Assembly (NCBI GenBank): GCA_963796335.1
Contig: CAWCLG010000006.1
Span: 132,540-196,539, forward strand
Direction of reading: 5' to 3'
DNA length: 64,000 nt
Source of the DNA: an uncultured Gemmatimonadales bacterium
Lineage (GTDB): Bacteria > Gemmatimonadota > Gemmatimonadetes > Gemmatimonadales > GWC2-71-9
Every line of letters begins with the position of its first letter. Positions within the stretch are counted from its first letter, which is position 1. The notes under the pieces are model-generated. The model had not been told where the DNA came from. It was given only the letters and a program-made list of their open reading frames with translations, and made no database searches. The position numbers were made by a program, and so were the translations under genes. Positions 23,883 to 56,127 of this stretch are shown one piece after another.

Positions 23883-23955
<73 letters not shown>

Positions 23956-36900: not shown

Positions 36901-37824
36901 ATGCCTCAGCAGCCAAGGCTGTTGGTCGGTTCCTCTCCGTCGATGGGCAGGGCGCTGGAACAGTGCGCCCGATTCGCACGGGGCCGGAATCCGGTCGTCC
37001 TCATCGGCGCCCCCGGCACCGGCAAGACGCTGCTCGCCGAGCACATCCACCTGCTCTCCGGGCGGACCGGGGAGTTCGTGAAGCTGTCGGCGTCGCACAT
37101 CCCGCCCAACCTGGAGCTGGCCCAACTCGGCGGGCACACGAGGGGTGCCTACACCGGGGCGGACCGCGATCAGCCCGGATTGCTGGAGACGTCCCATCGC
37201 GGAACGTTCTTTCTCGACGAGCTGGGCAACGCGTCGCCGATGGTGCAGGAGATCCTCCTCCAGGTGATCGAGGAGGGCACCATCCGACGGGTTCGGGAGA
37301 TCCGACCCCGGCCCCTCGACGTCCGCTTCGTCTTCGCCACCAATGCTCCGTTGCAGGCGCTGGTGGAGAAGGGCCAGTTCCGGCGGGATCTCTACGACCG
37401 TCTGGGTTTCTGCAAGATCGCGGTGCCGTCGCTGGCGGATCGGCGCGAGGACATCGAAGCCCTGCTGCGGTCGATGCTCCAACGCGAGGCCGAGGTCGCG
37501 GGGCTGGCCGAGCCGCCACGACTCGAATCCCGGCTGGTGGACTGCCTCATCGCGGCGCCCTGGAAGGGGAACGTCCGGGAGCTGGAGAACCTGTGCAAGT
37601 ACCTGGTCATTTTCGGGGATCTCGGTCGCCCGCTCGACATCGGGGACCTCCCCTACGACTTCGCCGCCTCGCTGGGCGCCATCCTGCGCCACCAGCACGA
37701 AACCCCCACGCTGGCCCACCGCGCTCGGGAAGCACTCGCCGCGACGGGCGGTGACAAGTCGGCCGCGGCGAGAATCCTCGGCATCAGCCGCACGCACATT
37801 TATCGGCTGCTCAAGCCGGCGTGA
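36901..37824 (+). CDS. receiver-less sigma54 enhancer-binding protein (AAA+ plus Fis-type HTH), bEBP-1
   Basis: Walker A GAPGTGKT, GAYTGA variant of the GAFTGA loop, Walker B FFLDELG, RELEN, and the C-terminal HTH AARILGISRTHIYRLL. No N-terminal sensory domain; 307 aa. Confidence 0.8.
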   Translation: MPQQPRLLVGSSPSMGRALEQCARFARGRNPVVLIGAPGTGKTLLAEHIHLLSGRTGEFVKLSASHIPPNLELAQLGGHTRGAYTGADRDQPGLLETSHRGTFFLDELGNASPMVQEILLQVIEEGTIRRVREIRPRPLDVRFVFATNAPLQALVEKGQFRRDLYDRLGFCKIAVPSLADRREDIEALLRSMLQREAEVAGLAEPPRLESRLVDCLIAAPWKGNVRELENLCKYLVIFGDLGRPLDIGDLPYDFAASLGAILRHQHETPTLAHRAREALAATGGDKSAAARILGISRTHIYRLLKPA

Positions 37825-37826
37825 TA

Positions 37827-37898
37827 GGCAGGCGGGCAGGCGGACAGGCGGGCGGGCGGTCAGGCGGACAGGCGGGCGGGCGGGCGGTCAGGCGGGCA
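37827..37898. repeat. degenerate octamer array (GNCNGGCG x ~9), complementary to the downstream CTGTCCGC array
   Basis: ggcaggcg ggcaggcg gacaggcg ggcgggcg gtcaggcg gacaggcg ggcgggcg ..., starting 3 nt after the bEBP-1 stop. Confidence 0.8.
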
Positions 37899-37912
37899 GA
37901 CGCGAGGCATAC

Positions 37913-37999
37913 GTGTCATCCCGAGCGCAGCGAGGGATCTTGCCGGGCGGAGTTCGAAGTCAGCCAGACAAGATCCCTCGCTGGCGCTCGGGATGACAC
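37913..37999. repeat. long hairpin (about 30 bp arms) of the GTCAYCCYGAGCG family
   Basis: GTGTCATCCCGAGCGCAGCGAGGGATCTTG...CAAGATCCCTCGCTGGCGCTCGGGATGACAC, with a one-base bulge. Confidence 0.8.
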
Positions 38000-38005
38000 T
38001 CGTTA

Positions 38006-38160
38006 CTGTCCGCCTGTCCGCCTGTCCGCCTGTCCGCCTGTCCGCCTGTCCGCCTGTCCGCCTGTCCGCCTGTCCGCCTGTCCGCCTGTCCGCCTGTCCG
38101 CCTGTCCGCCTGTCCGCCTGTCCGCCTGTCCGCCTGCCCGCCTGCCCGCCCGCCCGTCTG
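38006..38160. repeat. octamer tandem repeat: CTGTCCGC x16 perfect, then about 4 degenerate copies
   Basis: Counted unit by unit: 38006-38133 is 16 identical copies. 38134-38149 is two CTGCCCGC copies, followed by decayed copies. Confidence 0.95.
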
Positions 38161-38162
38161 CC

Positions 38163-38208
38163 GTAACCTGTCCGCCGTGACGTTACACCGACCGCTGTAA
38201 CATGTTAC
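38163..38208. promoter_or_regulatory. candidate upstream activator sequence: four GTAAC/GTTAC half-sites including the perfect palindrome GTAACATGTTAC
   Basis: GTAAC at 38163, GTTAC at 38182, GTAACATGTTAC at 38197-38208. Centred about 70-110 bp upstream of the -24/-12 candidate. Confidence 0.4.
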
Positions 38209-38274
38209 GCGGCCGCTCTCCGCGGTCCCTCGCCCAAACTCCATCCATTCATTCACTTGCCTCCAGCGACACAA

Positions 38275-38291
38275 CCGGCACGTCGTCTGCC
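38275..38291 (+). promoter_or_regulatory. candidate sigma54 (-24/-12) promoter for the gsp operon
   Basis: ccGGCACGtcgtCTGCc has GG-N10-GC spacing and matches 9 of 11 consensus positions of TGGCACG-N4-TTGC. The GC lies 36 nt upstream of the gspE ATG. Confidence 0.5.
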
Positions 38292-38325
38292 TTGCGAAGA
38301 GCCGACCTCACCAGCCGGTGCCTCC

Positions 38326-39816
38326 ATGACTGCTGCGCTCGCAACCAAGCTTCCGATCCCCGAGTCCTTCGCGGCGGAGTACCTCGAGTACTACCGCATG
38401 CTTCCCCTCGAGCTGGCGGACGATCGCATCCGGGTCGCCATCTCCGGCGACCCTAACGCGGAGGCGATCGACGACCTGCGCGACTCCTACGGGGTGTCCG
38501 TGGAGCTGGTGCAGGTGCCGGAGGAAGAGCTGCTCGACGCGATCAGGCGAACGTTCGCGGCGTCGGAGTCGGTGGTCGAGCTGGTGCGCGACCTCAGCGG
38601 CGACACCGCACTGGCAGGCCAGGGTGGCGACGACTCCCTCGCCGACGTGCGGGATCTCGCGAGCCAGCCTCCGGTGATCCGTTTCGTCAACCTGCTCATT
38701 CGCGAGGCCCACGACGCCGGCGCGAGCGACATCCACCTGGAGGCGACCAGAGACGGCCTCCGGATCCGGCTTCGGATCGACGGCGTGCTCACCGAGCTGC
38801 CCAGTCCGCCGAAAGGCCTTCAGGCCGCGGTCGTCTCGCGGATCAAGCTGCTGGCCGAGCTGGACATCTCGGAGCGGCGCCAGCCGCAGGACGGGCGGAT
38901 CCGGGTGCGGCTCGAGTCGCGCGAGCTCGATCTCCGGGTCTCCACCGTGCCGACGCTGCACGGGGAATCGGTGGTGCTTCGGCTCCTCGACCGCGGCGGC
39001 CGGCCGGTGTGCCTGGAGGAGCTCGGCCTGCCTCCGGAGATCCTGGGGTCGTTCGAGCGGCTGGCGCGCAAGCCGCACGGCATTCTGCTCTCCACCGGCC
39101 CGACCGGCTCCGGCAAGACGACGACGCTGTACGCGGCGCTGGGCCTCCGCCACCCGACCGAAGAGAAGGTCATCACGGTCGAGGACCCGGTGGAGTATCA
39201 CCTGCCCGATGTCACCCAGGTCCCGGTGCACCAGAAGGCCGGCGTGACCTTCGCCGCCGCTCTCCGAAGCATCCTGCGCCAGGACCCCGACGTGCTGATG
39301 GTCGGGGAGATGCGCGACCGGGAGACCGCCGGCATCGCGGTTCAGGCCGCCATGACCGGCCATCTGGTCTTCTCCACCCTGCACACCAACGACGCCGCCG
39401 GAGCCCTCACCCGCCTCGCCGATCTCGGCATCGAGCCCTACATGGTGGCGGCGACGCTCGAAGGCGTGCTGGCCCAGCGGCTGGTGCGCCGGACATGTCC
39501 CGACTGCCGGGAGACCTACCGTCCCGATCCCGGCGTGGTGGCGCTCCTGGCGCAGCGGCCGGTCGGCTCCATCCCGCTGGAACGGGGGAAGGGATGTGCG
39601 GCCTGCCGGCACACCGGTTTCCGGGGCCGCATCGGAATCTTCGAGCTGTTGATCATGACCGACGAGCTGCGGCGCGATCTGGCGACCGGGATGGACATCA
39701 CCTCGGTGCGGCGGCACGTGCGCGACGCGGGCGTGGCGAGTCTCCGGGACGACGCCTGGGCCAAGGTCCAGGCCGGGGTCACTACCGTGGAGGAGGTGCT
39801 TCGTGTGGTCGAATGA
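38326..39816 (+). CDS. gspE: type II secretion ATPase GspE
   Basis: T2SSE N-terminal domain, Walker A GPTGSGKTTT, Asp/His boxes, and the tetracysteine CPDC...CAAC motif. Confidence 0.9.
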   Translation: MTAALATKLPIPESFAAEYLEYYRMLPLELADDRIRVAISGDPNAEAIDDLRDSYGVSVELVQVPEEELLDAIRRTFAASESVVELVRDLSGDTALAGQGGDDSLADVRDLASQPPVIRFVNLLIREAHDAGASDIHLEATRDGLRIRLRIDGVLTELPSPPKGLQAAVVSRIKLLAELDISERRQPQDGRIRVRLESRELDLRVSTVPTLHGESVVLRLLDRGGRPVCLEELGLPPEILGSFERLARKPHGILLSTGPTGSGKTTTLYAALGLRHPTEEKVITVEDPVEYHLPDVTQVPVHQKAGVTFAAALRSILRQDPDVLMVGEMRDRETAGIAVQAAMTGHLVFSTLHTNDAAGALTRLADLGIEPYMVAATLEGVLAQRLVRRTCPDCRETYRPDPGVVALLAQRPVGSIPLERGKGCAACRHTGFRGRIGIFELLIMTDELRRDLATGMDITSVRRHVRDAGVASLRDDAWAKVQAGVTTVEEVLRVVE

Positions 39817-40255
39817 GGCGGGGCAGCGGGGCGGATTTACCTTGATCGAAATCCTGGTCGTCATCACGGTGATCGCGATCCTGGCCTCCCTGGTGACGCC
39901 CATGATCTTCCGGAACGTGGGCGACGCCAAGGTCTCGGCTGCACGCGCCCAGGTGGAGATCTTCGGGCTGGCGCTCGACGCCTACCGGCTCGACAACGAC
40001 TACTACCCCTCGACCGCGCAGGGACTCGACGCGCTGCGGACGCTCCCGGGCGGCCTGCCCGCCGCGCGCAACTGGCGCGGTCCCTACCTCAGGAAGGCGG
40101 TTCCGCTCGATCCATTCGGGCGACCCTACCTCTATAGGAGTCCGGGCGAGCGCAACCCGGGGTCCTACGATCTGCTGAGCCTGGGGCGGGATGGGACGCC
40201 GGGCGGCAGCGGTGAAGACGCCGACATCACGTCCTGGGGTGAGGACCGCAAGTGA
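39803..40255 (+). CDS. gspG: major pseudopilin GspG
   Basis: Prepilin leader MWSNEAGQRG|GFTLIEILVVITVIAILASL with Glu+5, and GspG-type body (WRGPYL...DPFGRPYLYRSPG...DLLSLGRDG). Confidence 0.9.
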   Translation: MWSNEAGQRGGFTLIEILVVITVIAILASLVTPMIFRNVGDAKVSAARAQVEIFGLALDAYRLDNDYYPSTAQGLDALRTLPGGLPAARNWRGPYLRKAVPLDPFGRPYLYRSPGERNPGSYDLLSLGRDGTPGGSGEDADITSWGEDRK

Positions 40256-41446
40256 CCGGCCTCTATCGGTATCGCGCCGCCCGGGCGGACGGCGGCCTGG
40301 TGCGCGGCGAAGTGGAGGCCGCGACCAGTGCCCAGGCCGGCTCGCTGCTGGAGGAGCGGGGACTGTTTCCGCTCGCCGTCCAGCCGGTCTCGCGAGCGGA
40401 CCCCGCTCGGCGGAGCGCGCCCCGAGCCGAGCTCGCCGTGGTGTTCCGGAGCCTGGCCATGCTGACAGGGGCCGGCGTGCCTCTCGAGCGGGCGCTGAGC
40501 AGCAGCGAGTCGTTGGCCAAGGGTCCGCTGCGGTCCTGCCTCGCCGCCGGCCGCGTCGAGCTGCGAGCCGGGAAGAGTCTGGCTGACGCCCTCGACGGCG
40601 CGGGCGGAGTGATTCCGCGTGTCGCGCTCGGCGTGCTGCGGGCCGGTGAGCGCGCCGGACGGCTGGTGCCGGCACTGGAGCAGGTCGCCGTTCAGCTCGA
40701 GCGGGAAGCGGATCTGGCCGGCACCATCCGGCAGTCGATGGCCTATCCCGCGCTGCTGGCGACGACGGGAGTTGGCGTCGATGCTGGTCATCGGCGGTGT
40801 CGTGGTCCCCCGCTTCGCCGCGCTGCTCGCCGATCTGGGCCAGGATCTGCCTCCCGCCACCCGGCTGCTGCTCGCCGTCTCCGCCTTCGTCGGCCGCTAC
40901 TGGAGCGCGATCCTCGCCGCGGTCTGCCTGGTCCTATGGCTGGTGCTGACCTGGGCGCGGACGCCGGCGGGCCGGCTGAGTCTGCACGAATGGCTCCTCC
41001 GCTTGCCCGTGCTCGGTCCGATGCGCCACGGCCTCGCCACCGCGCGAGCCACCAGCGCGCTGGGCGGCGCGCTCGCGGCCGGGATGCCCATGCTGCCGGC
41101 GCTCGACGTCTCCGCCGGCGCCACCGGGGACGACGCGGTGACGCTGCGGCTGGCCGCGGCGCGGGAGCGGGTGACGAGAGGCGAGAGCCTGAGCCACGCC
41201 CTGAGTCGCGAGCGCGCCCTGACTCCCGCCGGACTCCAGTTGATCGAAGTCGGAGAGCAGAGCGCGCAGCTCGCCCTGATGGCGGGCCGTGCCTCGGACC
41301 TGTCGGGCCGGGACGCTGAGCGCCGGCTGCGGGCCCTCGCGAGCCTGTTGGAGCCGGCGCTGGTGGTCGCGCTCGGCGGGATGGTGGCCTTCACGGCCCT
41401 GGCGCTGCTCCAGGCGCTCTACGGCATCCGCCCAGGTGGCATGTGA
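40252..41446 (+). pseudogene. gspF: inner-membrane platform protein GspF; one frame break
   Basis: The first GspF repeat is in frame 1 up to ..MAYPALLATTGV. The continuation ASMLVIGGVVVPRFAALLADLGQDLPPAT... and the second repeat are in frame 2 (break ~40770-40782). GTG 40252 overlaps the gspG stop. Confidence 0.8.
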
Positions 41447-41715
41447 GCGGCACGACGCTGGTCGAGCTGATGGTGTCGCTGGCCATCCTGGGACTGCTGG
41501 CCGGATTGGCCGCGGCCTCGCTGGCGGGTGCGCCGGGGAGACCGCGGGGCGGGGAGGTCGCATTGGAAGCGGCGAGAGCCTCCGCCATCCGCTCGGCCCG
41601 GCGGGTCGCCTTCGTGGCGCCGGACGGCGGGAGGTTCCTGCTGCTGCCCGACGGCAGGGTCATCGGTCCCGGAATCGACCCGCTCACCGGCGAGGTGACG
41701 CATGTCCGGCAGTAG
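41443..41715 (+). CDS. minor pseudopilin (short, GspH position)
   Basis: GTG 41443 overlaps the gspF stop. Prepilin motif SG|TTLVELMVSLAILGLLAG with Glu+5. Confidence 0.65.
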   Translation: MSGTTLVELMVSLAILGLLAGLAAASLAGAPGRPRGGEVALEAARASAIRSARRVAFVAPDGGRFLLLPDGRVIGPGIDPLTGEVTHVRQ

Positions 41716-42052
41716 ACGCGGGGTCGCGCTGCTGGAGGCGATTCTGGCCGTCGCCATCCTCGCTGCCGCGGGCGCCGCCGCCGCGGAGCTCGCCGCGGCG
41801 GGACTTCGGGCCGAGGTCGAGTCCGGCGTCCGGGAGCGACAGCTGGCCGAGGCGAACAGGCTGCTCGCCGCGATGACCTTGCTGGGAAAGGCGGACTTGG
41901 ACCGGCGGCTGGGATGGCATCGGACCGGAAGGCTGGTCGTCGGGGTGCAGCGGCCGGCGAAGGGCCTGTATCGCATCGCGATCGCGTCCGCCGACATGCC
42001 AGAGCTGGAGACCCTGGTGACGGTGGTGCACAAGCCGGAGCCGATCCGATGA
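41702..42052 (+). CDS. minor pseudopilin (GspI position)
   Basis: RRG|VALLEAILAVAILAAAG prepilin-type N-terminus with Glu+5; 116 aa. Confidence 0.65.
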   Translation: MSGSRRGVALLEAILAVAILAAAGAAAAELAAAGLRAEVESGVRERQLAEANRLLAAMTLLGKADLDRRLGWHRTGRLVVGVQRPAKGLYRIAIASADMPELETLVTVVHKPEPIR

Positions 42053-42585
42053 GACCGCGGGTTCCCCGTGGCTTCACCCTGGTTGAAGTGTTGGTGGCGC
42101 TCGCCATCACCGCGCTGGTGACGCTGCTGGCCCATCAGCTCTTCGCCACGGTGGTCGACTCCGGCCACCGCGCCGTCGTGACCCGGCGGGCCCTCGATCG
42201 CGAGGCCAACGCGCGCCGTCTGCTCGGCGCGGCGTTTCTCTCCCTCGATGTCGGCAGCGACTCCACCGGCGGGTTCGTCGGGCGGCCGGACCGCGCGAGC
42301 TTCACCGCCTGGCTTCCGACGCCCGAGGGCTGGTCCGAGCTCCGGAAGGTCACCGTGGGATTCGAGGCCTCGGCGTGGGTGGCCCGGTGGGACGGCGAGC
42401 GAGTCCTGCTTGCGGACAGCGTCGAGGCGGTCGGGCTGGACTACCTGCTGGAGCCGGGCGTGCAGGCCGCCTGGGTGCAGGAGTGGATCTCGGCGGTCAG
42501 CGCCCCGCTGGCGGTTCGTGCCCGGGTGCGGCGGGCCGGCGGGCGGACCGACACGACGCTGTACCTGATCAAGGCCCGCGGATGA
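42049..42585 (+). CDS. minor pseudopilin (GspJ position)
   Basis: ATG 42049 overlaps the upstream stop (ATGA). PRG|FTLVEVLVALAITALV prepilin motif. Confidence 0.65.
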   Translation: MRPRVPRGFTLVEVLVALAITALVTLLAHQLFATVVDSGHRAVVTRRALDREANARRLLGAAFLSLDVGSDSTGGFVGRPDRASFTAWLPTPEGWSELRKVTVGFEASAWVARWDGERVLLADSVEAVGLDYLLEPGVQAAWVQEWISAVSAPLAVRARVRRAGGRTDTTLYLIKARG

Positions 42586-43430
42586 GACGGGGCGCCGCGC
42601 TGCTCACGGTCCTCTGGCTGGTGGTCGCATTGGCGGGAGCCGCCGGCGCGGCGCTCGCCGCCGTTCGCCTGGGAGCGAGCACCAGCCGGAACCGGGTGCT
42701 CCTCACCCGCGCCGACTGGGCGCGCGAAGCCTGCGCCGAGATCCTGCTGGGGCGGTACGCGGAGCAGAGGAAGGTGGGCGCCGTCTCCCGAACGGATCTC
42801 GGACGCGGTACCTGGTGCCGCCTCGAGATCGAAGACGCCGGCAACCGGCTCAATCTGGCGCATGCCACTCCGGAGATGATCAGGCTGCTGCTCCGCGACG
42901 ACAGCCTGTCCGATGCGCTGCTCGACTGGACCGATCTGGACGACGAGCCGCGGCCGTCGGGCGCCGAGGCGGAGTGGTATCGGAGCCGCTCGCGCCGGCC
43001 GCCCGGCAATCGGCCGCTGGCGGCGACGGCGGAGCTGGGCTACGTGCGCGGGTTCGACAGCTCGCGGGTGCGCGCGCTCGAGCGGCTGGTGACCACGCGC
43101 GGAGGGCCGACAGTCGACATCAACGTGGCGCCGCCCGAGGTGCTGGCGGTGCTGCCGGGCATGTCGCGGGAAGCCCTCGCCGACATCCTGGTCCAGCGAA
43201 GGCGCCGGATCGCATCGGCCGACGAGCTGCTCGCGCGGCTGGGACGCTCCGGCCGCGAGGGGCTCGTCGCCCGATATCAGGAGTTCACCGCGGTCGCGGG
43301 CTTCGGCGCCACTCGCTACGTGGTCCTGGCTGAGGGGGGCGTCGAGGGGACGCCGGTCACCAGCCGCGGCTGGCTCACGTTGGTTCCCGCCGACGGCCGG
43401 CTCGCGGTAGTCAGGCGCGAAGTCGAATGA
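42582..43430 (+). CDS. gspK: minor pseudopilin GspK
   Basis: ATGA overlap with the upstream stop. N-terminus MRRGAALLTVLWLVVAL lacks Glu+5, as is typical for GspK. NLNxA and helix-hairpin-helix-like region (INVAPPEVLAVLPGMS). Confidence 0.75.
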   Translation: MRRGAALLTVLWLVVALAGAAGAALAAVRLGASTSRNRVLLTRADWAREACAEILLGRYAEQRKVGAVSRTDLGRGTWCRLEIEDAGNRLNLAHATPEMIRLLLRDDSLSDALLDWTDLDDEPRPSGAEAEWYRSRSRRPPGNRPLAATAELGYVRGFDSSRVRALERLVTTRGGPTVDINVAPPEVLAVLPGMSREALADILVQRRRRIASADELLARLGRSGREGLVARYQEFTAVAGFGATRYVVLAEGGVEGTPVTSRGWLTLVPADGRLAVVRREVE

Positions 43431-44420
43431 GTCCGACGCTGCGGTTGACCGTGGGCGGCGGGCTCGCCCGGGCGGAGCTGCTGGGGCGGAAGGGCTGCCT
43501 CTGGGAAGCGGCGACGCCGTGCGAGACCCCGGCGGAGCTGCGCGAGGCCATCGGACACCTGGCCGGGGAGCCCGGCCTGCCGCGGCGGGGCGGACGCATG
43601 CGGGTGGTCGTGACGATGGGATCGCCCGTGGTTCAGGTGCGCTCGCTGCGAGGCCTTCCGCCGGTGCGGTCCTGCCGAGCTTCGAGCCCTGGTCGCGGCG
43701 CAGGCGGGCCGCTACTTCAGGCGCAACGGCAAACCGCTGGTGACCGATGCCGCCTGGCTCGGCAAAGGCGCCCGGCGCGAAGGTCACGCCACGGCCGTCG
43801 CGGTCGAGGAGCCGTGGATCGACGCCGTCCTCGACGGCGCGGCGGAAGCCGGACTCGAAGTCGGCGCCATCCATCCCGCGCTCGAGTCTGCGGGAAGCTC
43901 ACTGTCGCTGATCAGCGAGTCGGAGCGGGTGCGCCGGGATCGGCGGGGACGGCTGCTCGACCGGCGGCTGGCCGTGGCGGCTGCCGCCGTGTGGATCCTC
44001 TGCATCGGTGGCCTCTCGGCGCGGTTCGAACAACGGAGGAACACGGTCGAGGCGGAGATCGAGAAGCTGGCGGCCCCCTCGCAGGCCGTGGCCCGGGCTC
44101 GGCGGTCGCTGCACGATGCGTCCGCGACCGTCGCCGCGTTGGAGGAGGCGAGCCTCCAGCGCGGCGCGCTGCTGGATCGGATCGGGCGCATCGCGGCCGC
44201 GCTGCCCGACTCGGCCTACCTCGCGTCACTCACGGTGGACCTGGGGGGCAGCGGGTCGATGACGGGTGAGGCCCGCCATTCGTCCCAGGCGCTCGCTCGG
44301 CTGGAAGCGGAGGGCGCTGTCCTCGCACCCCGTCCCCTGGGTCCGGTCACCAGCGAGTCGGACGGCGGCCGGGTGTGGGAGCACTTCTCTATCGGCTTCG
44401 GCGCGGAGCCGGCGCGGTGA
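43427..44420 (+). pseudogene. GspL-like assembly protein (cytoplasmic PilM/GspL-like half, TM helix, PilN-like half); one frame break
   Basis: Frame 3 reads ..VVQVRSLRGLPPV. The continuation PAELRALVAAQAGRYFRRNGKPLVTDAAW... is in the next frame (break ~43660-43676). There is a single TM helix (LAVAAAAVWILCIGGL). Confidence 0.65.
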
Positions 44421-47845: not shown

Positions 47846-47997
47846 GACCGTGGAGTTGCCGCGTTCAAGGATGGAGCCGTGGCAAACATCCGGGTGGAAA
47901 CCCATGCGCCTCGTGGCCTGCACGGTAACGTGCAGATCAAGAGGAAGGGTGGGGAGATCGTTAACAAGCATATCGATCCCTGAGCGTGGAGCCAGTT

Positions 47998-48890: not shown

Positions 48891-49391
48891 ATGGGCAATG
48901 AGCCTGGACGGCCCATGGCAGACCGCTCGCCGCAGTCATTCGGCGGGCTCATTCGGGCCATTGGGATACTCGAAATCGTTGGCGGGGTTGCGGGGTGCGC
49001 CGCGGTCGCTTGGTTCTACGTGGGTGGCCATCAAGAGGCCATGCCAGGCGGCGATGTACAACTTGCGCTTCTGCCCTTTGGAACACTTACAACCGTCGGC
49101 TTCGCACTCCTGCGCGCACGCCAAGCGGGGCTTTGGGGTTCCCTTGTGCTGCAGCTCTCTCAAGCCCTGGCCTGGACGGCGGGAGAGACGATGTGGAGGT
49201 TCTCGGCTGGACCATTTCTATCTCTTACGCTTCTCAATGACACAACCTCGATCTTCGCTGGGTGGGACACGAGCTTCGGTTTTGGGCGCGTTCCCGAAAA
49301 CGCTCCTGGATCTGTTTCGTTGAATCTGATCCCGGTCTTTATTGCGTTAGCGCTGTGGCGACACCTGAGACGAGGCTTGCCGTCCTCGTAG
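48891..49391 (+). CDS. hypothetical four-TM membrane protein (possible orphan immunity protein)
   Basis: 166 aa ORF with four hydrophobic helices (LIRAIGILEIVGGVAGCAAVAWFYV, LALLPFGTLTTVGFALL, LWGSLVLQLSQALAW, LNLIPVFIALALW). Start uncertain (48891 or 48915). Confidence 0.4.
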   Translation: MGNEPGRPMADRSPQSFGGLIRAIGILEIVGGVAGCAAVAWFYVGGHQEAMPGGDVQLALLPFGTLTTVGFALLRARQAGLWGSLVLQLSQALAWTAGETMWRFSAGPFLSLTLLNDTTSIFAGWDTSFGFGRVPENAPGSVSLNLIPVFIALALWRHLRRGLPSS

Positions 49392-50007
49392 GCAAGACAC
49401 GTGTCACAGTGTAAGTAACTGAGTAGTCATAGGCCGGCCGACTATTTGGTGCGGTTATGAGGCCGAGATTGTAGGATAAACTTCTCCCCAAGAGACCGCC
49501 TCAAGGCTCGCATTCGCGGCACAATGCGATTTCTGGGGGCGAGCTTCTTCCGGAACGGCCATGTTTATTCGATGTGTTGTCTCGGAACGGGATAGTCGTT
49601 CTAACCAGCCTATGGGCATCTTCACGGCGCTCATAGGCTGGGGCGCGAAGGCAGGCTCGCACCCCATGAACTCGAATGGTTCCACAACACCGAACAGTGG
49701 TTCAACGAGCGATTGGAACGCCCGGATCAACTATCATGGTCGGGGCGGCCAGATGCACTGCCCCTCGCAATTACATGGCTAAGAATGTCGGCTGGCTAAC
49801 CTTCGATGTCGCTGAGGTCCGTAGGGCGTTGGCGGATGCCAAGATGCTCTCGTGGGGAGAGGTTATCCCGACATTCGGATCTAGGTCGCTGAGTTCGGGT
49901 GTGGATCGTTCCAATGGCCGTATGCCTTCGGAGTCGCCTTCATACCAGAGCATTGTATGGACGTGAGAACGTGGTCTTTCTGGATGTGGGGCGCAATAGC
50001 ACTGGTC

Positions 50008-50112
50008 TTTACTTCATCGTCTTGTGAGCAGTGAGCCGCCAGGGATCAATAGCCGTAGGCAGCTCGCCTCGGATGTCTTTGCGTTTCATCCTCGTCCCCC
50101 AATTCAGGGATC
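50008..50112. repeat. X1: about 100 bp direct repeat, copy upstream of the HExxH gene
   Basis: Aligns by eye with 50872-50967 at roughly three quarters identity (cttgtga.cagtg...taggc.gctcgc.tcggat...ttcatc.tcgtccc...ttcag.g.tctc). Confidence 0.6.
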
Positions 50113-50168
50113 TCCTTCTCGAATGAGCACGCGAGCCCTTAGAGCCGCCGCCTGCAAGAGGCCATAGA

Positions 50169-50807
50169 GTGGTTGTCAACCTATCCAAGGTGTCGTATTC
50201 GGTCGTGTCTTGGGTTCGGGTACCGCTGCGATGGGCACTGCTGAATACCCTATTCCTCTTGTCGTCCAAGACGGTGATTGGGGGCATCGAAGTCATCGAT
50301 GTGGCCGAAGTGGATGTCGATCAAACTCTGCGTCGGCTTCGCGAAGCGCTAGACGTCATAAGGCGGACCGACGTCCGTCGTTATGAGCGCATGAGACGAG
50401 ACCTGCGGCGCATTGTCCTCATGAAGGCGGGTGTGCCTCAATTTGCATCCGAGGTAGGCGCATGCCTCATCAGGAGTGCTTATGTACGGGAGAAATCTGC
50501 CGAGGCAGTAGCCACAACGTTGGTACACGAGGCTGTGCACGCCCGTATTCATCGCCGTGGCGTAGGATATGGGCCTGGCCTGCGCATTCGCGTGGAGGAA
50601 GTCTGTGTCAAGCAGCAGATCGACTTCGCAAGGGCCCTGGGGAACCCTGAGATACTCAGTCATCTGACACAGGTGCTGAAGGCGCCGCTATGGGTGCTAG
50701 CACTGCAACACGAGGACACCATCGCAGCCCTGCGGAGTTTAGGAGTGCCGGAATGGATGCTTCGCCTGTATGACAAAGTCGCCTTCGCCATGCGACGCCA
50801 TACCTAG
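50169..50807 (+). CDS. hypothetical HExxH-motif protein (putative zinc metallopeptidase fold)
   Basis: 212 aa ORF (GTG start) with TLVHEAVHARIHRRG. No signal peptide and no recognised family. Low GC. Confidence 0.45.
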   Translation: MVVNLSKVSYSVVSWVRVPLRWALLNTLFLLSSKTVIGGIEVIDVAEVDVDQTLRRLREALDVIRRTDVRRYERMRRDLRRIVLMKAGVPQFASEVGACLIRSAYVREKSAEAVATTLVHEAVHARIHRRGVGYGPGLRIRVEEVCVKQQIDFARALGNPEILSHLTQVLKAPLWVLALQHEDTIAALRSLGVPEWMLRLYDKVAFAMRRHT

Positions 50808-50871: not shown

Positions 50872-50967
50872 GTTGCTTCGTATCTTGTGAACAGTGGCAG
50901 GATCCGCAGTCCTAGGCGGCTCGCTCGGATCCCTTTCTCTTCATCTTCGTCCCTGCTTCAGAGTCTC
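50872..50967. repeat. X2: about 100 bp direct repeat, copy downstream of the HExxH gene, abutting R2
   Basis: See X1. Its 3' end runs into the triple-GTCTCA element. Confidence 0.6.
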
Positions 50968-50992
50968 AAAGTCTCACGTAGTCTCAAGACTC
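50961..50992. promoter_or_regulatory. R2: 32 bp triple-GTCTCA element (copy 2), candidate UAS for the rhs promoter
   Basis: gagtctcaaagtctcacgtagtctcaagactc ends in the palindrome AGTCTcaAGACT. Centred about 97 bp upstream of the -24 GG. Confidence 0.45.
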
Positions 50993-51071
50993 CATGAGAC
51001 GGTCGCACGATCCGGTCATCCTCCCCGCCTCCAAAAACTGTTGAAACCAATGACTTAGGTGCCCAGCCCTG

Positions 51072-51088
51072 GCGGCATGGTCACTGCT
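51072..51088 (+). promoter_or_regulatory. candidate sigma54 (-24/-12) promoter for rhs
   Basis: gcGGCATGgtcaCTGCt has GG-N10-GC spacing and the same CGGCAYG-N4-CTGC form as the gspE candidate. The GC lies 35 nt upstream of the GTG 51122 start proposed here. Confidence 0.45.
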
Positions 51089-51121
51089 CTCCCCTTCAGC
51101 ATCCCCGCTCCGGAGAGCCAT

Positions 51122-54100
51122 GTGTTCCGCACCGCCCACCGCTGCGCTGCCGCGCGGCTTCTGTTCGTCGCCCTCGCCACGCTCCTGCTCACGTCCGGTC
51201 CCGCTGCTGCGCAGTTCAGCACTCAGGCCCTAGGCGGCCTCGAGATTACTCCGGACTCGTCCACAATGATCGTGGCCCCGAATACGAACGGTCACCAGAT
51301 CGAGTTCCTCGCGCGCAATGAGCTGCTGACCACAGGAACCTGGTCATTCAGCTGCGTCGCGACGGGCAACGTGAGCTGTGTCTCCTTCCCCTCCGGGGCT
51401 ACCTACCCTTCGGGTGGAGGCGGTGAGCTGCTCGTCACCTTCAACGCGACGGCTGGTGGCACCGGCCGCATCACGTTGACGGCCTCCCCGGGAGGAGAAA
51501 CCGGCTCGGTCATCGTCGACATCGCCGAGCCGGGTGCGCCGGCCGTCACGCTGCAGAACCACAACCGGGACAACGTCGACCGTTCGATGTGCCTGACCGC
51601 GGGGGCCGGTGACGGTGCCGCGTGGAGCTGTGGCGACCTGGTGATCACTCACGCGATGCCGACCTACACCACGATGAACAAGGGACGGAACCTCACGCTG
51701 ATCCACAATTCGGCGACGACGCATCCGATGCCGCCGATCGCCGCGGTCATCAATCAGACCGGGCGCACGATCATGCAGGGCATCAGGGCGCAGGTATGGG
51801 TGGGCGCCACGCCGGTCCTACTTCGCTCAGTGGTGTATGACCCGTGGTCCACCGGGGTCGGCAGCTCCAGGCAAGTGGTGGTCGACTTCAATGCGGACAC
51901 GTTCTCGACCGGCGCCTATCCCATGGAGTTTCGAGTCGAGAACGTGTACCCAACGCTGCCGCCCTTTATCACGACGGTGAAGGACACCTTGCTGATCGTC
52001 AATCGAACCCGCAGCGAACTGGGGGCGGGTTTCGGAATCGCCGGCGTGGAGCAACTCTTCCTCAATCAGCCGGTGGGCACCGCACTGGGCCATCTGATGT
52101 GGGTCGGCGGGGACGGGTCGGCCAAGCTCTACCGGAAACTCAACGCCACGACATGGGTCGGGCCACTGGGCGGGTTCCAGGATACCATCTCGTTTGCATC
52201 CTCGAAGTACACCCGCACCATGAAGGGTGGTACCAAGGTCGAGTTCGATGCTACCGGCCGCCACACCGCGACCATCAACCGTGCTGGACAGACCACCACC
52301 TTCACCTGGACATCGACCCCGTCGGGTCCGCGCCTGACCGGCATAGCCGTGCCGCCGACGACGCAGGGCGGATCGTACACACTGGTCTATGAGACCACAG
52401 GCAGCCGCCTGCTCGATCTGATCCGCGACCCCGCGAACCGCACCCTGAACCTCACGATGGCGGATGGTCGCCCTACGATACTGATCGATCCTGACAATCT
52501 TCAAACCGAGTTCGGGTGGGACGTCACCAACCGGCGGATCACCTCACGCAAGAATCGGAAGGGTTGGACTACTCGCTACGAGTACTCCAAGGGCCTCGCC
52601 TGGGGCAGCAGAGTGACGAAGGTGACTGCCCCGATCGGCCGTACCGTCGATACAGAAACGGCTGCCACCGTGTTCGAGCCCTGGAACGACAAGGGGCTGG
52701 GTATTGCACCAACCAACCAGGATGCCGTCGTCGTTGCTCAGGTGGAGACTCGCATCCTCGGCCCGCGAGCGGGCGTCAACGACAATGCGGATTTCCTGGT
52801 CAACAAATGGGGTGCGCCCACCAGGGCAGAGAATGCGATCGGGGCGGTGACCACGTACGCCCGTTCCAGCGCCTCATTCCCGGCCTTGATCACGAGGATC
52901 ACCCATCCGAACGGCAGGATCACCGATCAGACCTACAACAACCGGGGCAACCTCACCAAGGTCAGGGACGATGTGAACCCGATCACGGGTGATCCCCAGA
53001 CTCGGGTGACGGTGTACGAATATCCTAGCTCCGGTCTCAACCGCGACTACCCCACCGCCGTCTGGGACTCACTCGCCTCGCCGACCAGGACCGAGTACGT
53101 CTACAACTCCATGGGCTTGCCCGACACCGTGCGCTCACCCGGCGGGCACCGCACCGGGTTCACCTACAAGACCAGCGGCGCGCTGAAGGGGCTGATGATC
53201 CGCAGCACGGAGGTCAGCGTCGAAACCTGGGAGGAAACCGCCACGGCGCAGGATACCGACTTCCAGTGGCGGAACCACGAGCGGCGCTTCGACTACGATG
53301 CCAAGGGCAACCTGCAGGCCGACACGTCAGCCGTCGGTGCCGTGACGTCGTTCAGTCGCGACGCCATGGGGCGGGTGACCAACGTTTACGACCCGCTCAA
53401 GACCAGGATCGAGCGGGTCTACGACCCGATGGATCGCGTGACCCAGACGAAGCACTATACCACGACGACGGCACATCCGATCGTCACCAACCCCCTGGCG
53501 GGCTGTATCGCCAATCAGGCGGTCTGCTCCGACAATACGGTGGCATGGGATCCACTGCCGAACCCGGTGAACACGACCTACAATCATGGAGCCATGAATC
53601 TCGAGTCGGTTCTGGATCCCCGATCGGTGCCCCGCACCTACGTGTACGACACGCGGGGACTCGTGATCGAGGAGAAGGACGATTACAACAAGTCCCGCCT
53701 GGCCTTCTATAACGAGGCCGGTCTGATCACGTCCTCCCGGTCCCGCACCAACCGTGAGGTCCGCTTCTACTACGACGCCGCAGGCCGGCGGACCGCCATG
53801 GCCTATGGCGCGGTGCCGAGTCCGGTGCCGGGTTCGGGGGCAAGCGTTCCGGGCGACAGCATCCGGTACACGTACGACAACATGGACAATCTGCTGACTG
53901 TCACGAACCGAGAGGGAACTATAACTCGCACGTACATGCGAAACGGGCTGGTCAAGCAGAAGACCATGAATTTTGTCGGCACGATTCCAAATGACGTCGT
54001 CACCTATGTGTACGATCGTGACGGCGTACTTCGGACTGCGACCCGCGGCTCGGACGTCGTGACATACAACTATCAGGCGGCGACCAGGAACCTCAGCACC

Positions 54101-55774
54101 ATGGTTGTCCAGCTAGGTGCCCCGGCCAGCATCACTCGGACCTTTACGTTCGACTGGGACTCGCTCGGCCGGACCCGCCGGATCACTTATCCCACCAACG
54201 CGTCCCACCCTCTGACCGTGGACTACCGGTACGACAGGGCGGGAATTCTCCGGCGCCTGGTGTCCAAGCAGACCGGTGCCGCCAGTACCATTCTGAACTT
54301 CACCTATCGCAACGTCGCGGTAGATCCCATCGGACGCATCATCCGCGACAGCCTGACCTGCTCGCCGAGCTCGGCTCCCGGTCCGTGCGAGGGCACGACC
54401 CCGATCCGGGTGGCGAACTCATACAGCCGGATGGGAGCCCTGCTGAGACAGGAGTATCGGCGCGGAGGGAGCCGGCAGGTCGATTCGATGAGCTATGACG
54501 CGTCGGGAAACATGAAGTTTCGGGTCCAGGAGGATCTTGGGCACATCCACACGTTCACGCTGGATGCCGGCGCGCACAACCGGCTGGCCAGCTTCGTACG
54601 CTCGGAGCTCGGCAATACCTCCCGTGCAATCACGTACAACCTTGATGGCGCTCGTCTGCGCGAAGTACGGGACCCTTGGAACGAAAACGTCCCCGAGGAG
54701 CGATACTACCACTATGATGGCCTCGGGCGCATGAGCGGCACGGGTGAATACCTCTTGGTCGGTAGCTCGTGGCAGTTCTCGGATCGGGAGACCGCATGCC
54801 AGTACGATGGCGACGGGCAAATGATCGGGCCGTGTGATAACGGGTCCCATTTCCTGCTGTTTGACGGGGACAATACGACTGGCACCACTGATGCCAATTC
54901 GCATGGCTGGCGGTTCTTCCACGCCCCAGGAATCGATTCACCGCTGCTGGGATACCTCCGCGGACCCAGCAACCGCCTCTACCTGTGGGTGACCGACGGC
55001 AGGGGCCGAGAGTTTGCTGTGGCGGACACGCTAGGGCGGCGGAATTCGTCGGAGGACGGGATTAGCCAGCTAGGTGACTGGCGATATGCTGGTGGCACAA
55101 AGGCCTCGAACAGCTTTGATGCTGACCGCTTCGGTTCGCCTCAGGCGCCGAAGCTGTCGTTCTTCCGGAACCGAGCGTATGATCAGGAGACCGGGCGGTG
55201 GACCCAGGAAGACCCGATAGGATTGGCTGGTGGGGTCAATCTCTATCAGTTCAATGGGAACGATCCAGCCTCTTATACCGATCCTTTCGGGCTATGTGTT
55301 CCTTGGTGCACGGCGTTGATCGGTGCAGCGGTCGGTGGGGGTGGCGCAGCAATCGCAACGCTGGCCTACAACGCGATGAACGACCGTCCGTTGGGCGAGA
55401 ACGTGGGACGCAATGCTCTCGTCGGCGGGGCTGCCGGTGGAGCCATCGGGCTCGGAGTTGGACTCTTCAGCGGAGCGGGAGCCGCTGTGGCGACTGGTGC
55501 GGCTCCGGTGGTAGGCAAGGGTACTGAACGTCTGATAGGCATGCTCGAGCAAGCCGGTCCCTCGATGGATGCAAGAATCAGGGCGGTTAGTGAGTATCTA
55601 CCGGCCGGCCAGAAAGCGGTGATGACCGCTCTTGAAGGTGGCTCCCGAATGCTGTCGGGGGGAGCAGGCTCCCGAGCTACTCAGGTAATCCTTAACGGCG
55701 ATGGAAGTACAATCGTGAAGAAGTTCAATACGGCAAAGGAAGCCTTTGAGGTGGTTAAGGAGATTAGGCCGTGA
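51122..55774 (+). CDS. Rhs/YD-repeat polymorphic toxin with Sec-type signal peptide and unrecognised C-terminal domain
   Basis: Many YD repeats (YxYDxxGxL) and a core ending in DPIGLAGGVNLYQFNGNDPASYTDPFGL. Start set at GTG 51122 (SD GGAGAG 5 nt upstream), giving the signal peptide FRTAHRCAAARLLFVALATLLLTSGPAAA|Q. The longest ORF starts at 51059. Confidence 0.88.
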   Translation: MFRTAHRCAAARLLFVALATLLLTSGPAAAQFSTQALGGLEITPDSSTMIVAPNTNGHQIEFLARNELLTTGTWSFSCVATGNVSCVSFPSGATYPSGGGGELLVTFNATAGGTGRITLTASPGGETGSVIVDIAEPGAPAVTLQNHNRDNVDRSMCLTAGAGDGAAWSCGDLVITHAMPTYTTMNKGRNLTLIHNSATTHPMPPIAAVINQTGRTIMQGIRAQVWVGATPVLLRSVVYDPWSTGVGSSRQVVVDFNADTFSTGAYPMEFRVENVYPTLPPFITTVKDTLLIVNRTRSELGAGFGIAGVEQLFLNQPVGTALGHLMWVGGDGSAKLYRKLNATTWVGPLGGFQDTISFASSKYTRTMKGGTKVEFDATGRHTATINRAGQTTTFTWTSTPSGPRLTGIAVPPTTQGGSYTLVYETTGSRLLDLIRDPANRTLNLTMADGRPTILIDPDNLQTEFGWDVTNRRITSRKNRKGWTTRYEYSKGLAWGSRVTKVTAPIGRTVDTETAATVFEPWNDKGLGIAPTNQDAVVVAQVETRILGPRAGVNDNADFLVNKWGAPTRAENAIGAVTTYARSSASFPALITRITHPNGRITDQTYNNRGNLTKVRDDVNPITGDPQTRVTVYEYPSSGLNRDYPTAVWDSLASPTRTEYVYNSMGLPDTVRSPGGHRTGFTYKTSGALKGLMIRSTEVSVETWEETATAQDTDFQWRNHERRFDYDAKGNLQADTSAVGAVTSFSRDAMGRVTNVYDPLKTRIERVYDPMDRVTQTKHYTTTTAHPIVTNPLAGCIANQAVCSDNTVAWDPLPNPVNTTYNHGAMNLESVLDPRSVPRTYVYDTRGLVIEEKDDYNKSRLAFYNEAGLITSSRSRTNREVRFYYDAAGRRTAMAYGAVPSPVPGSGASVPGDSIRYTYDNMDNLLTVTNREGTITRTYMRNGLVKQKTMNFVGTIPNDVVTYVYDRDGVLRTATRGSDVVTYNYQAATRNLSTMVVQLGAPASITRTFTFDWDSLGRTRRITYPTNASHPLTVDYRYDRAGILRRLVSKQTGAASTILNFTYRNVAVDPIGRIIRDSLTCSPSSAPGPCEGTTPIRVANSYSRMGALLRQEYRRGGSRQVDSMSYDASGNMKFRVQEDLGHIHTFTLDAGAHNRLASFVRSELGNTSRAITYNLDGARLREVRDPWNENVPEERYYHYDGLGRMSGTGEYLLVGSSWQFSDRETACQYDGDGQMIGPCDNGSHFLLFDGDNTTGTTDANSHGWRFFHAPGIDSPLLGYLRGPSNRLYLWVTDGRGREFAVADTLGRRNSSEDGISQLGDWRYAGGTKASNSFDADRFGSPQAPKLSFFRNRAYDQETGRWTQEDPIGLAGGVNLYQFNGNDPASYTDPFGLCVPWCTALIGAAVGGGGAAIATLAYNAMNDRPLGENVGRNALVGGAAGGAIGLGVGLFSGAGAAVATGAAPVVGKGTERLIGMLEQAGPSMDARIRAVSEYLPAGQKAVMTALEGGSRMLSGGAGSRATQVILNGDGSTIVKKFNTAKEAFEVVKEIRP

Positions 55775-56127
55775 CCAAGCATGCAGGGCACTCGCACGAG
55801 CGTGCCAGAGCCATCTGGAGATTCGCGGAGTCGGAAGAGGATGGCGAGACGTGGCTTCGTAATCCAGCCTTGTTACAAGGCTACGTTGATTACGAATCTC
55901 GTAGTGATGATGGTAATAGAATCTGGCGAAGAATTATGGTGGTGACCAAAGGCTGGCTGGAAAGCCAAGTTCAAAGCGTGCGCAAGGGAACTACTTCCCC
56001 TCTTTGGATTGCACTGCCGGCCTTGGTTGTCCTACCGGACGCGACTGGAGAAGAACTAAAAGCTGCGGTAGACGCGGTAATCGGACAGGGCGGCCTGGAC
56101 CCCTACTCGACGGCCCTATCCACTTAA
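55771..56127 (+). CDS. candidate cognate immunity protein
   Basis: GTG 55771 overlaps the rhs stop (GTGA), with AAGGAG 7 nt upstream. 118 aa. This is the lowest-GC stretch of the locus. Call is based on position only. Confidence 0.5.
   Translation: MTKHAGHSHERARAIWRFAESEEDGETWLRNPALLQGYVDYESRSDDGNRIWRRIMVVTKGWLESQVQSVRKGTTSPLWIALPALVVLPDATGEELKAAVDAVIGQGGLDPYSTALST

Follow-up and report, generated by a model that had tools for sequence, protein, structure and literature searches.

In Gram-negative bacteria, Rhs toxins have been studied almost wholly as type VI secretion system (T6SS) cargo, and the exit route of Rhs proteins that carry a signal peptide is poorly documented, the available information being one activity result and one genomic prediction. 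The former concerns Bcn-A, an Rhs-family bacteriocin of Xanthomonas perforans whose activity, found in the supernatant, disappears when xpsD (gspD) is mutated (PMC7259588), which gives experimental support to the export of an Rhs toxin by a type II secretion system (T2SS). The latter concerns two Rhs families linked to gspG, XRhs F VIII and RRhs F II, for which T2SS export was predicted from the genomic link in a study that makes no mention of sigma factors or regulators (bioRxiv 10.1101/2025.05.08.652813). The T2SS is also listed among Rhs export routes in a review that describes the typical Rhs architecture, with its YD shell, DPxG-X18-DPxG autoproteolysis motif, polymorphic C-terminal toxin and adjacent immunity gene (PMC10684867). 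Here we describe a gene block in a 64-kb window (the whole stretch of DNA that was analysed; all coordinates are positions in it) of a metagenome-assembled contig of 1.82 Mb from an uncultured, soil-type Gemmatimonadales bacterium. The MutS protein encoded in the window has 79-89% identity to proteins of Gemmatimonadales bacteria. With a probability that we put at about 60%, the sequence comparisons point to a conserved Gemmatimonadales module composed of a dedicated T2SS, a polymorphic Rhs toxin with an immunity gene, and a pair of sigma-54 activators, both receiver-less, by which these are linked. A literature search, which was not exhaustive, yielded no description of a module that joins a dedicated T2SS, an Rhs protein and a double activator, nor of such a system in Gemmatimonadota. 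The original prediction for this DNA, which held the architecture to be undescribed, stands, within the scope of that search, for the full combination and not for T2SS-dependent Rhs (PMC7259588) or gspG-linked Rhs (bioRxiv 10.1101/2025.05.08.652813), both of which are known.

Gene order in the window and in related contigs

Genes in the window were called by frame analysis of the GC content at third codon positions (GC3) combined with Pfam and NCBIfam. The block lies on the + strand and runs from a first bacterial enhancer-binding protein (bEBP-1) through a 12-cistron gsp operon, with bEBP-2 as its last cistron, to the Rhs gene and a small gene that overlaps it.

36901-37824, + strand: bEBP-1, receiver-less sigma-54 activator (Pfam Sigma54_activat 3.8e-44, AAA_lid_14, HTH_8)
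38326-39816, + strand: gspE, secretion ATPase (Pfam T2SSE 5e-130; best NCBIfam match type_II_gspE, 580 bits)
39803-40255, + strand: gspG, major pseudopilin, prepilin motif QRG/FTLIE (NCBIfam typeII_sec_gspG, TIGR01710, 157.6 bits, cut-off 88.85)
40252-41446, + strand: gspF, inner-membrane platform, frame broken at 40772 (best NCBIfam match GspF, 285 bits)
41443-41715, + strand: minor pseudopilin with a GspH-like N-terminus, G/TTLVE
41702-42052, + strand: minor pseudopilin-like gene, RRG/VALLE (weak call; gene kept at the same position in all relatives)
42049-42585, + strand: minor pseudopilin, GspJ-like, PRG/FTLVE (Pfam N_methyl; NCBIfam gspJ 9e-8)
42582-43430, + strand: gspK, minor pseudopilin without Glu5 (Pfam T2SSK_1st 8.5e-13; NCBIfam T2SS_GspK 1.5e-24)
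43427-44420, + strand: gspL-like gene, frame broken at 43668 (called on position alone; no family match)
44417-44983, + strand: gspM (Pfam T2SSM_b 8e-6)
44980-45441, + strand: short GspC-like gene, 153 aa (NCBIfam GspC_delta 3.9e-5, below cut-off)
45438-46889, + strand: gspD, secretin, 483 aa, with its own signal peptide (Pfam Secretin 1.8e-42, Secretin_N, N0)
46886-47845, + strand: bEBP-2, receiver-less sigma-54 activator, last cistron of the operon (Pfam Sigma54_activat 2.9e-54)
51122-55774, + strand: rhs, 1550 aa (Pfam RHS_repeat 6.6e-22; Rhs cores in PDB down to 8.5e-12)
55771-56127, + strand: putative immunity gene, 118 aa, GTGA (4-nt) overlap with rhs (no known family)

Evidence that these genes belong together comes from nine independent Gemmatimonadales contigs that encode bEBP-2 homologs 51-68% identical to that of the window and in which the following order is found.

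L016, L017, L104, L106 and the P0003 contig: bEBP-1, gspE to gspD, bEBP-2, Rhs
L099: operon, bEBP-2, Rhs, with a scaffold gap at the expected place of bEBP-1
L103: operon, bEBP-2, Rhs, no bEBP-1
P0006 contig (error-prone): operon, in which the gspF and gspL calls are truncated, bEBP-2, then a large gene interrupted where the contig stops
L101: Rhs, secretin fragment, bEBP-2, Rhs, without a gsp operon in the vicinity

A large Rhs gene directly follows bEBP-2 in eight of the nine relatives, the downstream gene of the ninth being the one cut by the contig end; gsp genes are present in eight (seven of them intact) and bEBP-1 in five, and the 4-nt overlap between gspD and bEBP-2 is kept in all eight relatives that bear the operon. 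As a control, 94 loci with paralogous activators (32-47% identical) were collected from two scans with bEBP-2, and none of them has an Rhs, GspG or GspK homolog at E < 1e-10. The scan of the genome collection returned only paralogs in that identity range and, as its exact 8-residue patterns reach near-identical sequences only, is silent on absence; the metagenome scan, with a bEBP-2 alignment and generic AAA+ motifs, gave at least 80 loci, all of those listed being paralogs (34-44%). When the last 80 aa of bEBP-2 were used against the full library, 54 weak matches and no usable family count were obtained. Taken together, bEBP-1, the gsp genes, bEBP-2 and rhs almost certainly form one conserved functional unit, and the comparative check that had been proposed, whether the order bEBP-gsp-bEBP-rhs recurs in related genomes, has a positive answer in divergent Gemmatimonadales contigs.

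The composition of the DNA might nevertheless suggest that the rhs region is a recent insertion that came to lie beside an unrelated operon by chance, as the interval from 47.9 to 56.1 kb has 57-64% GC compared with ~70% in the flanking chromosomal DNA, and as the stretch between bEBP-2 and rhs varies between near-identical strains. Low GC and local rearrangement are, on the other hand, normal for rhs tips and cassettes, and the relatives contradict the proposal, the synteny being held across lineages whose Rhs proteins are only 23-46% identical and being absent from the 94 control loci. An insertion without synteny elsewhere, named at the outset as a case that would overturn the prediction, is excluded by these two observations, and the chance that the adjacency is fortuitous is vanishingly small.

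In the window, bEBP-2 and rhs are separated by ~3.3 kb, occupied by two features.

47811-47851, + strand: copy A of the rhs upstream repeat, truncated, AGTCTCAggGTCTCAcggAGTCTTGAGACT, at the end of bEBP-2, the ancestral position
47852-50770, no strand: strain-variable cassette, 57-60% GC

Two contigs from one sample are close enough to the window for a direct comparison, namely L102, which is 96.5% identical to it over 8.4 kb, and L105, which is 97% identical up to 47851 and 95.6% from 50771 onward, and which has between these points a different rhs gene with its own -24/-12 element. At the position of copy A the L105 repeat runs on into a promoter and this other rhs gene, an arrangement that accounts for both the low GC of 47.9-56.1 kb and the 3.3-kb gap. 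The window's copy A is a truncated relic of an L105-like arrangement. The locus is a hot spot for rearrangement, and the linkage was not brought about by a foreign insertion. The cassette contains an Imm32-like open reading frame (ORF; 47986-48363), which scores 25.3 bits where the cut-off is 27, an ORF for a multi-pass membrane protein (48891-49391) and the greater part of an ORF with an HExxH motif (50169-50807); Pfam searches at E up to 5 gave nothing for them beyond the sub-threshold Imm32 match, and they may be orphan immunity genes. In both L101 (1-20897) and L105 (9578-20349), gspD is represented by a 3' fragment only, bEBP-2 comes next, and two rhs genes follow, both of which have a repeat and a -24/-12 element of their own. 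The homology of L105 with the window begins exactly where the L102 contig ends (46556/46557), a boundary that may stem from joining during assembly or from a genuine structural variant.

The type II secretion operon

Several components by which a T2SS is recognised are encoded in the operon: GspD with N0 and Secretin_N domains, GspE, GspF (after removal of one base), GspG, and minor pseudopilins including GspK. For GspE and GspF the type II models outrank the PilB and PilC models, with scores below the NCBIfam equivalog cut-offs, and gspD is best matched in NCBIfam by type_II_gspD, whose 239 bits fall short of the curated cut-off of 351. The GspC-like assignment, weak by its score, concerns a gene of 130-163 aa that is conserved in the relatives at the same position before gspD. 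All junctions from gspE through bEBP-2 overlap by 4 or 14 nt, that between gspD and bEBP-2 being ATGA. The tight coupling that had been noted for a T2SS-like operon of 11 genes is therefore confirmed, with the count amended to 11 gsp cistrons plus bEBP-2 and the order of the first three to E-G-F. Neither the window locus nor any related locus contains a gene for the prepilin peptidase GspO/PilD, which may be encoded elsewhere in the genome; in many T2SS this gene lies outside the operon. In L106 a second, shorter T2SSE-family ATPase gene (16961-18118, - strand, 385 aa) is located just downstream of the rhs and putative immunity pair.

The reading frames of two operon genes are interrupted in the window, gspF by one extra T at 40772 (gagTtgg, compared with gag-tgg in L102) and the gspL-like gene by one extra G at 43668 relative to L102, each extra base adjoining an identical one. 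If these frameshifts were real, the window copy might be a decaying, non-functional locus in which the rhs gene beside bEBP-2 has been replaced by unrelated DNA, a proposal that would also fit the truncation of the copy A repeat at 47851 and the 2.9 kb of low-GC DNA that follow it. In L102, on the contrary, gspF is intact and the gspL frame unbroken, and L102 has 1-nt indels of its own in gspE, at the gspK/L junction and in gspD; in L105, bEBP-2 and an rhs gene are each split in two by 1-nt indels. A third break within 12 kb is found in the window's Na+/H+ antiporter gene (34450-36813), where, at ~35280-35545, the Na_H_Exchanger domain falls into two parts read in different frames, profile positions 5-72 and 93-373, in keeping with indel errors of the assembly. 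GC3 stays high on both sides of the gspF and gspL breaks, and the contigs bear names in the style of long-read assemblers. The gspF gene is likewise intact in L016, L017, L099, L103, L104 and L106; full-length calls from seven more distant relatives give 393-397 aa for gspF and 316-340 aa for gspL, and the window gspF, once relieved of the extra base, encodes a 397-aa protein that aligns to NCBIfam GspF over positions 1-394 of 401. Since single-base indels are scattered at differing places in near-identical long-read contigs, the two breaks look like assembly errors, which they probably are, so that a working machine is not refuted. In addition, the rhs gene of the window is complete and has an intact repeat and promoter to itself, and decay of the locus is, on balance, improbable. 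The frame breaks, which had been flagged as potentially fatal to the prediction, do exist as single extra bases and, as probable assembly errors, lose their force as a refutation. A programmed frameshift in gspF and gspL was considered as well and rejected, the breaks being absent from relatives and placed differently in different assemblies.

Activators, promoters and upstream repeats

Both predicted activators have the compact architecture of enhancer-binding proteins, with an AAA+ domain that bears a GAFTGA-type loop and a C-terminal helix-turn-helix (HTH); sigma-54 activation itself is a prediction. In bEBP-1 the AAA+ (Sigma54_activat) domain starts at residue 8, the loop motif is GAYTGA and the HTH reads ILGISRTHIYRLLK; in bEBP-2 the AAA+ domain starts at residue 18, the motif is GAFTGA and the HTH reads ALGVSRATLFRRLR. 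The HTH_8 model passes for bEBP-1 and is weak for bEBP-2, for which the PDB matches are NtrC1, FleQ and PspF. Loop variants among the orthologs are GAFTGA, GSFTGA and GAFSGA. As Pfam finds no sensory or receiver domain in either protein, the original description of a receiver-less activator at 36901-37824 and of a second one that ends the operon in an ATGA overlap with gspD stands. A third sigma-54 activator, of the NtrC type with a classic receiver domain, is encoded at 6721-8535 (- strand), which shows that sigma-54 regulation is in wider use in the organism.

The gsp operon and rhs are each preceded by a promoter element of the same GG-N10-GC form, which nearly all loci have 44-59 nt ahead of gspE and of rhs, and, further upstream, by a repeat of a different kind.

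38163-38208, + strand: candidate upstream activator site of the gspE promoter, GTAAC-N14-GTTAC plus the palindrome GTAACATGTTAC (TGTAACATGTTAC including the preceding T)
38277-38290, + strand: gsp operon promoter of the -24/-12 (sigma-54) type, GGCACGtcgtCTGC, located 49 nt ahead of the ATG of gspE
50961-51000, + strand: copy B, candidate upstream activator site for the rhs promoter, with AGTCTCA three times and an inverted TGAGAC
51074-51087, + strand: rhs promoter of the -24/-12 (sigma-54) type, GGCATGgtcaCTGC, located 48 nt ahead of GTG 51122

In the form GGCAYG-N4-YTGC, the promoter pattern originally proposed is found at just two places in the 64 kb, 38277 and 51074, each time on the + strand. 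The sites are significant because they are conserved across relatives, not by virtue of window statistics. The element is located 44-52 nt before gspE in L016, L017, L102, L103, L104 and L106, and 47-59 nt ahead of where the rhs transcription unit starts in L016, L017, L099, L101 (twice), L103 and L104, that is, at a fixed distance in eight related loci; one-base variants are present at the rhs site of L105 (GGTACG) and L106 (GGCACA). In 209 kb of related loci, both strands included, GGCAYG-N5-TGC has 17 matches, 14 of which lie on the coding strand 44-59 nt before gspE or the rhs unit, compared with a background of 0.018 per kb per strand. Within spacers that are otherwise unalignable, the columns that never vary are those of the GG, the TGC, the ribosome-binding site GGAG and the repeats further upstream. 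The claim that promoters of one form precede gspE and rhs at nearly the same distance holds by this conservation, and it finds no support in an excess over chance within the window alone.

The upstream repeats, ~75 nt (gspE) and ~95 nt (rhs) before the -24/-12 elements and so within the 70-150 nt expected for an activator site, are conserved in alignments as well, in agreement with the earlier observation that the rhs promoter has its own, different repeat. An alignment of the window with L016 and L017 reveals TGTAAC and TGTAACATGT.AC as invariant blocks of the gspE site, in which GTAACATGT is unique in the window, and clusters of GTCTCA/TGAGAC occur in the 64 kb only at copy B and at 47811-47838. 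Across the relatives, the repeats pair with the HTH sequences of the activators as follows.

window, L016, L017: bEBP-1 LGISRxxIYRLL with TGTAAC...GTTAC...TGTAACATGT(T/G)AC before gspE
L104, L106: bEBP-1 LGxHPNTIDNHRR with TTGTGACGG, three times
L103: no bEBP-1, and an unrelated gspE repeat, GGTGGTCA/TGACCA
window, L016, L017, L099, L101, L105: bEBP-2 SRATL(F/Y)RRL with GTCTCA/TGAGAC before rhs
L104, L106: bEBP-2 HRATL(F/H)RRL with GTCGCG/CGCGAC
L103: bEBP-2 ARSTLYDRL with GGAATTCC, three times

The SRxxIYRLL form of the bEBP-1 HTH accompanies the upstream repeat TGTAACATGTKAC. From the conserved elements, both the gsp and the rhs promoters are very probably sigma-54 dependent. Each repeat changes with the HTH of its matching activator, in a co-variation that comprises few independent changes, all in the same direction, and this supports the assignment of bEBP-1 to the gspE promoter and of bEBP-2 to the rhs promoter, an assignment that we consider likely. 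The retention of bEBP-2, the repeats and two rhs genes in L101, which lacks the operon, fits an action of bEBP-2 on rhs.

Alternatively, the two activators could act as a mixed oligomer in the manner of HrpR and HrpS, or with exchanged targets, so that bEBP-2 would, for example, autoregulate the operon and bEBP-1 would drive rhs. Both proteins resemble HrpR, HrpS and PspF in having no sensory domain, and sequence alone gives no proof of which protein pairs with which site. Arguing the other way, the two share only 36% identity and are encoded 9 kb apart, the repeats at the two promoters are unrelated and track the HTH of bEBP-1 at gspE and that of bEBP-2 at rhs, and bEBP-2 and rhs persist without bEBP-1 in L101 and L103. 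Some such mixed or exchanged arrangement is highly doubtful, and an HrpR/HrpS-type pair in particular, a comparison made in the original prediction, was rejected on these grounds of distance, divergence, separate promoters with different DNA sites, and loci with bEBP-2 alone.

Three further observations concern the DNA around these promoters. A palindromic element of ~335 bp (37827-38162, no strand) fills the space between bEBP-1 and the gspE upstream repeat and contains seven GGCAGGCG octamers, an inner 90-nt hairpin (37908-37998, gtcatcccgagcgcagcgagggatc...) and CTGTCCGC eighteen times at 99% identity. It is present in L102 and absent from the short bEBP-1/gspE spacers of L016 and L017; it is lineage-specific, lies outside the conserved module, and could be a mobile miniature element or a transcriptional insulator. 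In L103 an extra small ORF of ~110 aa (11142-11560) is found between the sigma-54-type promoter and rhs. A scan of the region for sigma-70 promoters and terminators gave results at chance level.

The Rhs toxin, the proposed cascade and known systems

The start of rhs was fixed by alignment of the relatives at GTG 51122, preceded by CCGGAG, and the first GTG, at 51059, was rejected as a start for this reason. Read from GTG 51122, the protein begins with a typical Sec signal peptide (aa 1-30, AAA/Q; MFRTAHRCAAARLLFVALATLLLTSGPAAA/Q), followed by an all-beta N-terminal region to ~aa 350 and a YD-repeat shell. Next comes, after RNRAYDQETGRW, the motif DPIGL-X18-DPFGL at aa 1364-1391 (nt 55211-55294; DPIGL at aa 1364, DPFGL at aa 1387) and then a C-terminal domain of 159 aa (aa 1392-1550, nt 55295-55771) with Gly/Ala-rich hydrophobic stretches. 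TEN_YD-shell is found in the orthologs, and similarity to the Rhs cores in PDB is limited to the end of the shell. Homology among the Rhs proteins extends through the N-terminal all-beta region, ~aa 137-350, in which conserved cysteines are compatible with disulfide bonding.

All Rhs orthologs have a Sec-type signal peptide and the DPxG-X18-DPxG motif, after which nine different C-terminal domains are found, several of them Gly-rich and hydrophobic and that of L106 being a Peptidase_M23 domain, a peptidoglycan hydrolase. The gene after rhs differs in every relative as well (266 aa, TPR, ankyrin, 132 aa, 292 aa), and the combination of variable C-terminal domains with differing following genes is the signature of a polymorphic toxin with cognate immunity. 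For the window's toxin domain and 118-aa ORF, Pfam gave no match at E up to 5. The Peptidase_M23 and Gly-rich hydrophobic domains suggest targets that can be reached from outside the cytoplasm. A T6SS-type Rhs was rejected: the first 359 aa contain no PAAR, VgrG or other trafficking domain (Pfam, E up to 5), and neither the window nor the relatives have vgrG, chaperone or T6SS genes as neighbours. The original remark that this Rhs lacks PAAR, VgrG and T6SS context is thereby upheld, with a signal peptide found in their stead.

We lean towards the Rhs protein being the cargo of the adjacent T2SS. Its close association with the operon in eight of nine relatives, the signal peptide in all orthologs, the lack of any other exported cargo gene conserved in the block and the Bcn-A precedent of T2SS dependence all argue in this direction. 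It is also conceivable that the genes are merely co-regulated, the T2SS exporting proteins encoded elsewhere and the Rhs leaving the periplasm in vesicles, by lysis, by surface anchoring or by some other route. L101, where bEBP-2 and two sigma-54-driven rhs genes coexist with a mere secretin remnant, would fit such a separation of toxin and machine; a T2SS cargo signal cannot be read from sequence; and a library search with the N-terminal 360 aa returned only five matches, from which the AlphaFold model of this region (all-beta, predicted local distance difference test 56) is too poor for ideas on docking. Against the weight of the four former observations, we regard an Rhs that is not T2SS cargo as rather unlikely.

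We infer from these sequences the sigma-54 dependence, the binding targets of the activators, the export of the Rhs by the T2SS and its antibacterial action, and together they would constitute a two-step cascade. In a first step, bEBP-1 would bind the TGTAAC/GTTAC repeats upstream of the gspE promoter and, with sigma-54 RNA polymerase, give rise to a single, translationally coupled message of 12 cistrons that comprises gspE to gspD and bEBP-2. Through its coupling to the secretin gene, bEBP-2 would accumulate along with the machine and, in a second step, bind the GTCTCA/TGAGAC repeats upstream of the second -24/-12 promoter, switching on rhs and the immunity gene; as bEBP-2 would be made in step with the secretin, the toxin would be produced only once the machine is under construction. 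The Rhs precursor would cross the inner membrane through Sec, fold in the periplasm and be taken through the outer membrane by the adjacent T2SS, to be secreted or exposed at the surface and act on competitors, its variable C-terminal domain being the toxic part. Such a scheme is a linear cascade without a feed-forward loop, and the label "feed-forward" used in the original prediction does not apply.

Several observations weigh against the module as we read it. No rpoN gene is present in the 64-kb window. Within the window alone, the original promoter pattern is found 2 times compared with 1.3 expected, which is no excess over chance, and the textbook -24/-12 consensus with 3 mismatches is not enriched (62 found, 82 expected). 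Were the gspF and gspL breaks real, the window copy would be dead. The first activator is missing in L103 and not resolved in L099 and the P0006 contig. L101, with bEBP-2, two rhs genes and only a secretin fragment in place of a nearby gsp operon, implies either that Rhs export is not strictly dependent on the operon, or that a second copy exists elsewhere, or that this locus is decaying. The putative immunity protein has neither a family nor clear membrane segments, even though the toxin domain looks membrane-active, and, at ~165 kDa, a shell protein would belong to the larger of the known T2SS cargoes.

The remainder of the window contains genes of other kinds. Three tandem paralogs at 19436-23023 (- strand) encode PD40/WD40-like beta-propeller proteins of 393, 387 and 407 aa and are followed by a tRNA-Phe (23883-23956) and a stretch of lower GC (24-29 kb, 65-67% GC); an Rfam scan of the window detected only a tRNA, outside the module region. 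Directly after the rhs block, at 56146-59157, lies a gene for a UvrD-type helicase of 1003 aa whose two helicase halves flank an inserted RNase_T-like 3'-5' exonuclease domain; the GC3 of this gene (0.92-0.99) marks it as a member of the core genome.

The module joins known kinds of components, a T2SS, an Rhs polymorphic toxin and sigma-54 activators, in a new combination, which is well supported as a module. By tying a complete T2SS to an Rhs toxin, both physically and in regulation, across a lineage, it makes toxin delivery by the T2SS directly testable, and it offers experiments a set of defined parts, namely a pair each of promoters, DNA sites and minimal activators. For Gemmatimonadota, a soil phylum that is abundant and barely studied, it would be the first system of secretion or competition to be described, and a compact case of assembly-ordered expression from sigma-54 parts only. 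The odds are about even that it represents a class of interbacterial weapon not recognised before, in which a T2SS is dedicated to a Sec-exported polymorphic Rhs and is timed by a two-step relay of sensor-less sigma-54 activators.

Among known systems, Bcn-A is similar in being a large Rhs/YD-repeat toxin with a downstream immunity gene. It differs in using the housekeeping Xps T2SS, which is encoded elsewhere, and in its requirement for accessory ORFs; neither a dedicated gsp operon nor a sigma-54 promoter nor an activator within the cluster has been described for it, and its host belongs to the Gammaproteobacteria. In XRhs F VIII and RRhs F II the adjacency is confined to a gspG-like gene and export is a prediction, whereas the present module has a whole machine and two activators. 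The T6SS Rhs effectors RhsA, Tse5 and Tse15, WapA of Bacillus and the TcB/TcC part of Tc toxins share with the window protein the YD-repeat shell, the DPxG-X18-DPxG motif and the polymorphic C-terminus with adjacent immunity; unlike this group, the window protein has no PAAR, VgrG, chaperone or T6SS genes and carries a cleavable Sec signal peptide.

On the side of regulation, VasH of Vibrio cholerae is a sigma-54 activator encoded inside a T6SS cluster that turns on exported components and toxin genes, and thus resembles the present case in the location of an activator within the cluster of the machine and in sigma-54 promoters for effectors; it differs in the type of secretion system, in its N-terminal regulatory domain and in having no relay of two activators. 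The flagellar sigma-54 relays from FlrA to FlrC in Vibrio and from FleQ to FleR in Pseudomonas also order assembly, the first activator driving a class of genes that includes the second, but their activators have sensory or receiver domains, the second is under kinase control, and the output is a flagellum. HrpR and HrpS of Pseudomonas syringae, encoded by neighbouring paralogous genes, work together as a hetero-oligomer at one promoter and control a secretion system. Like them and PspF of E. coli, the activators of the module are minimal, consisting of AAA+ and HTH domains; unlike HrpR and HrpS, they are distant from one another in both position and sequence, and each is matched to a promoter of its own.

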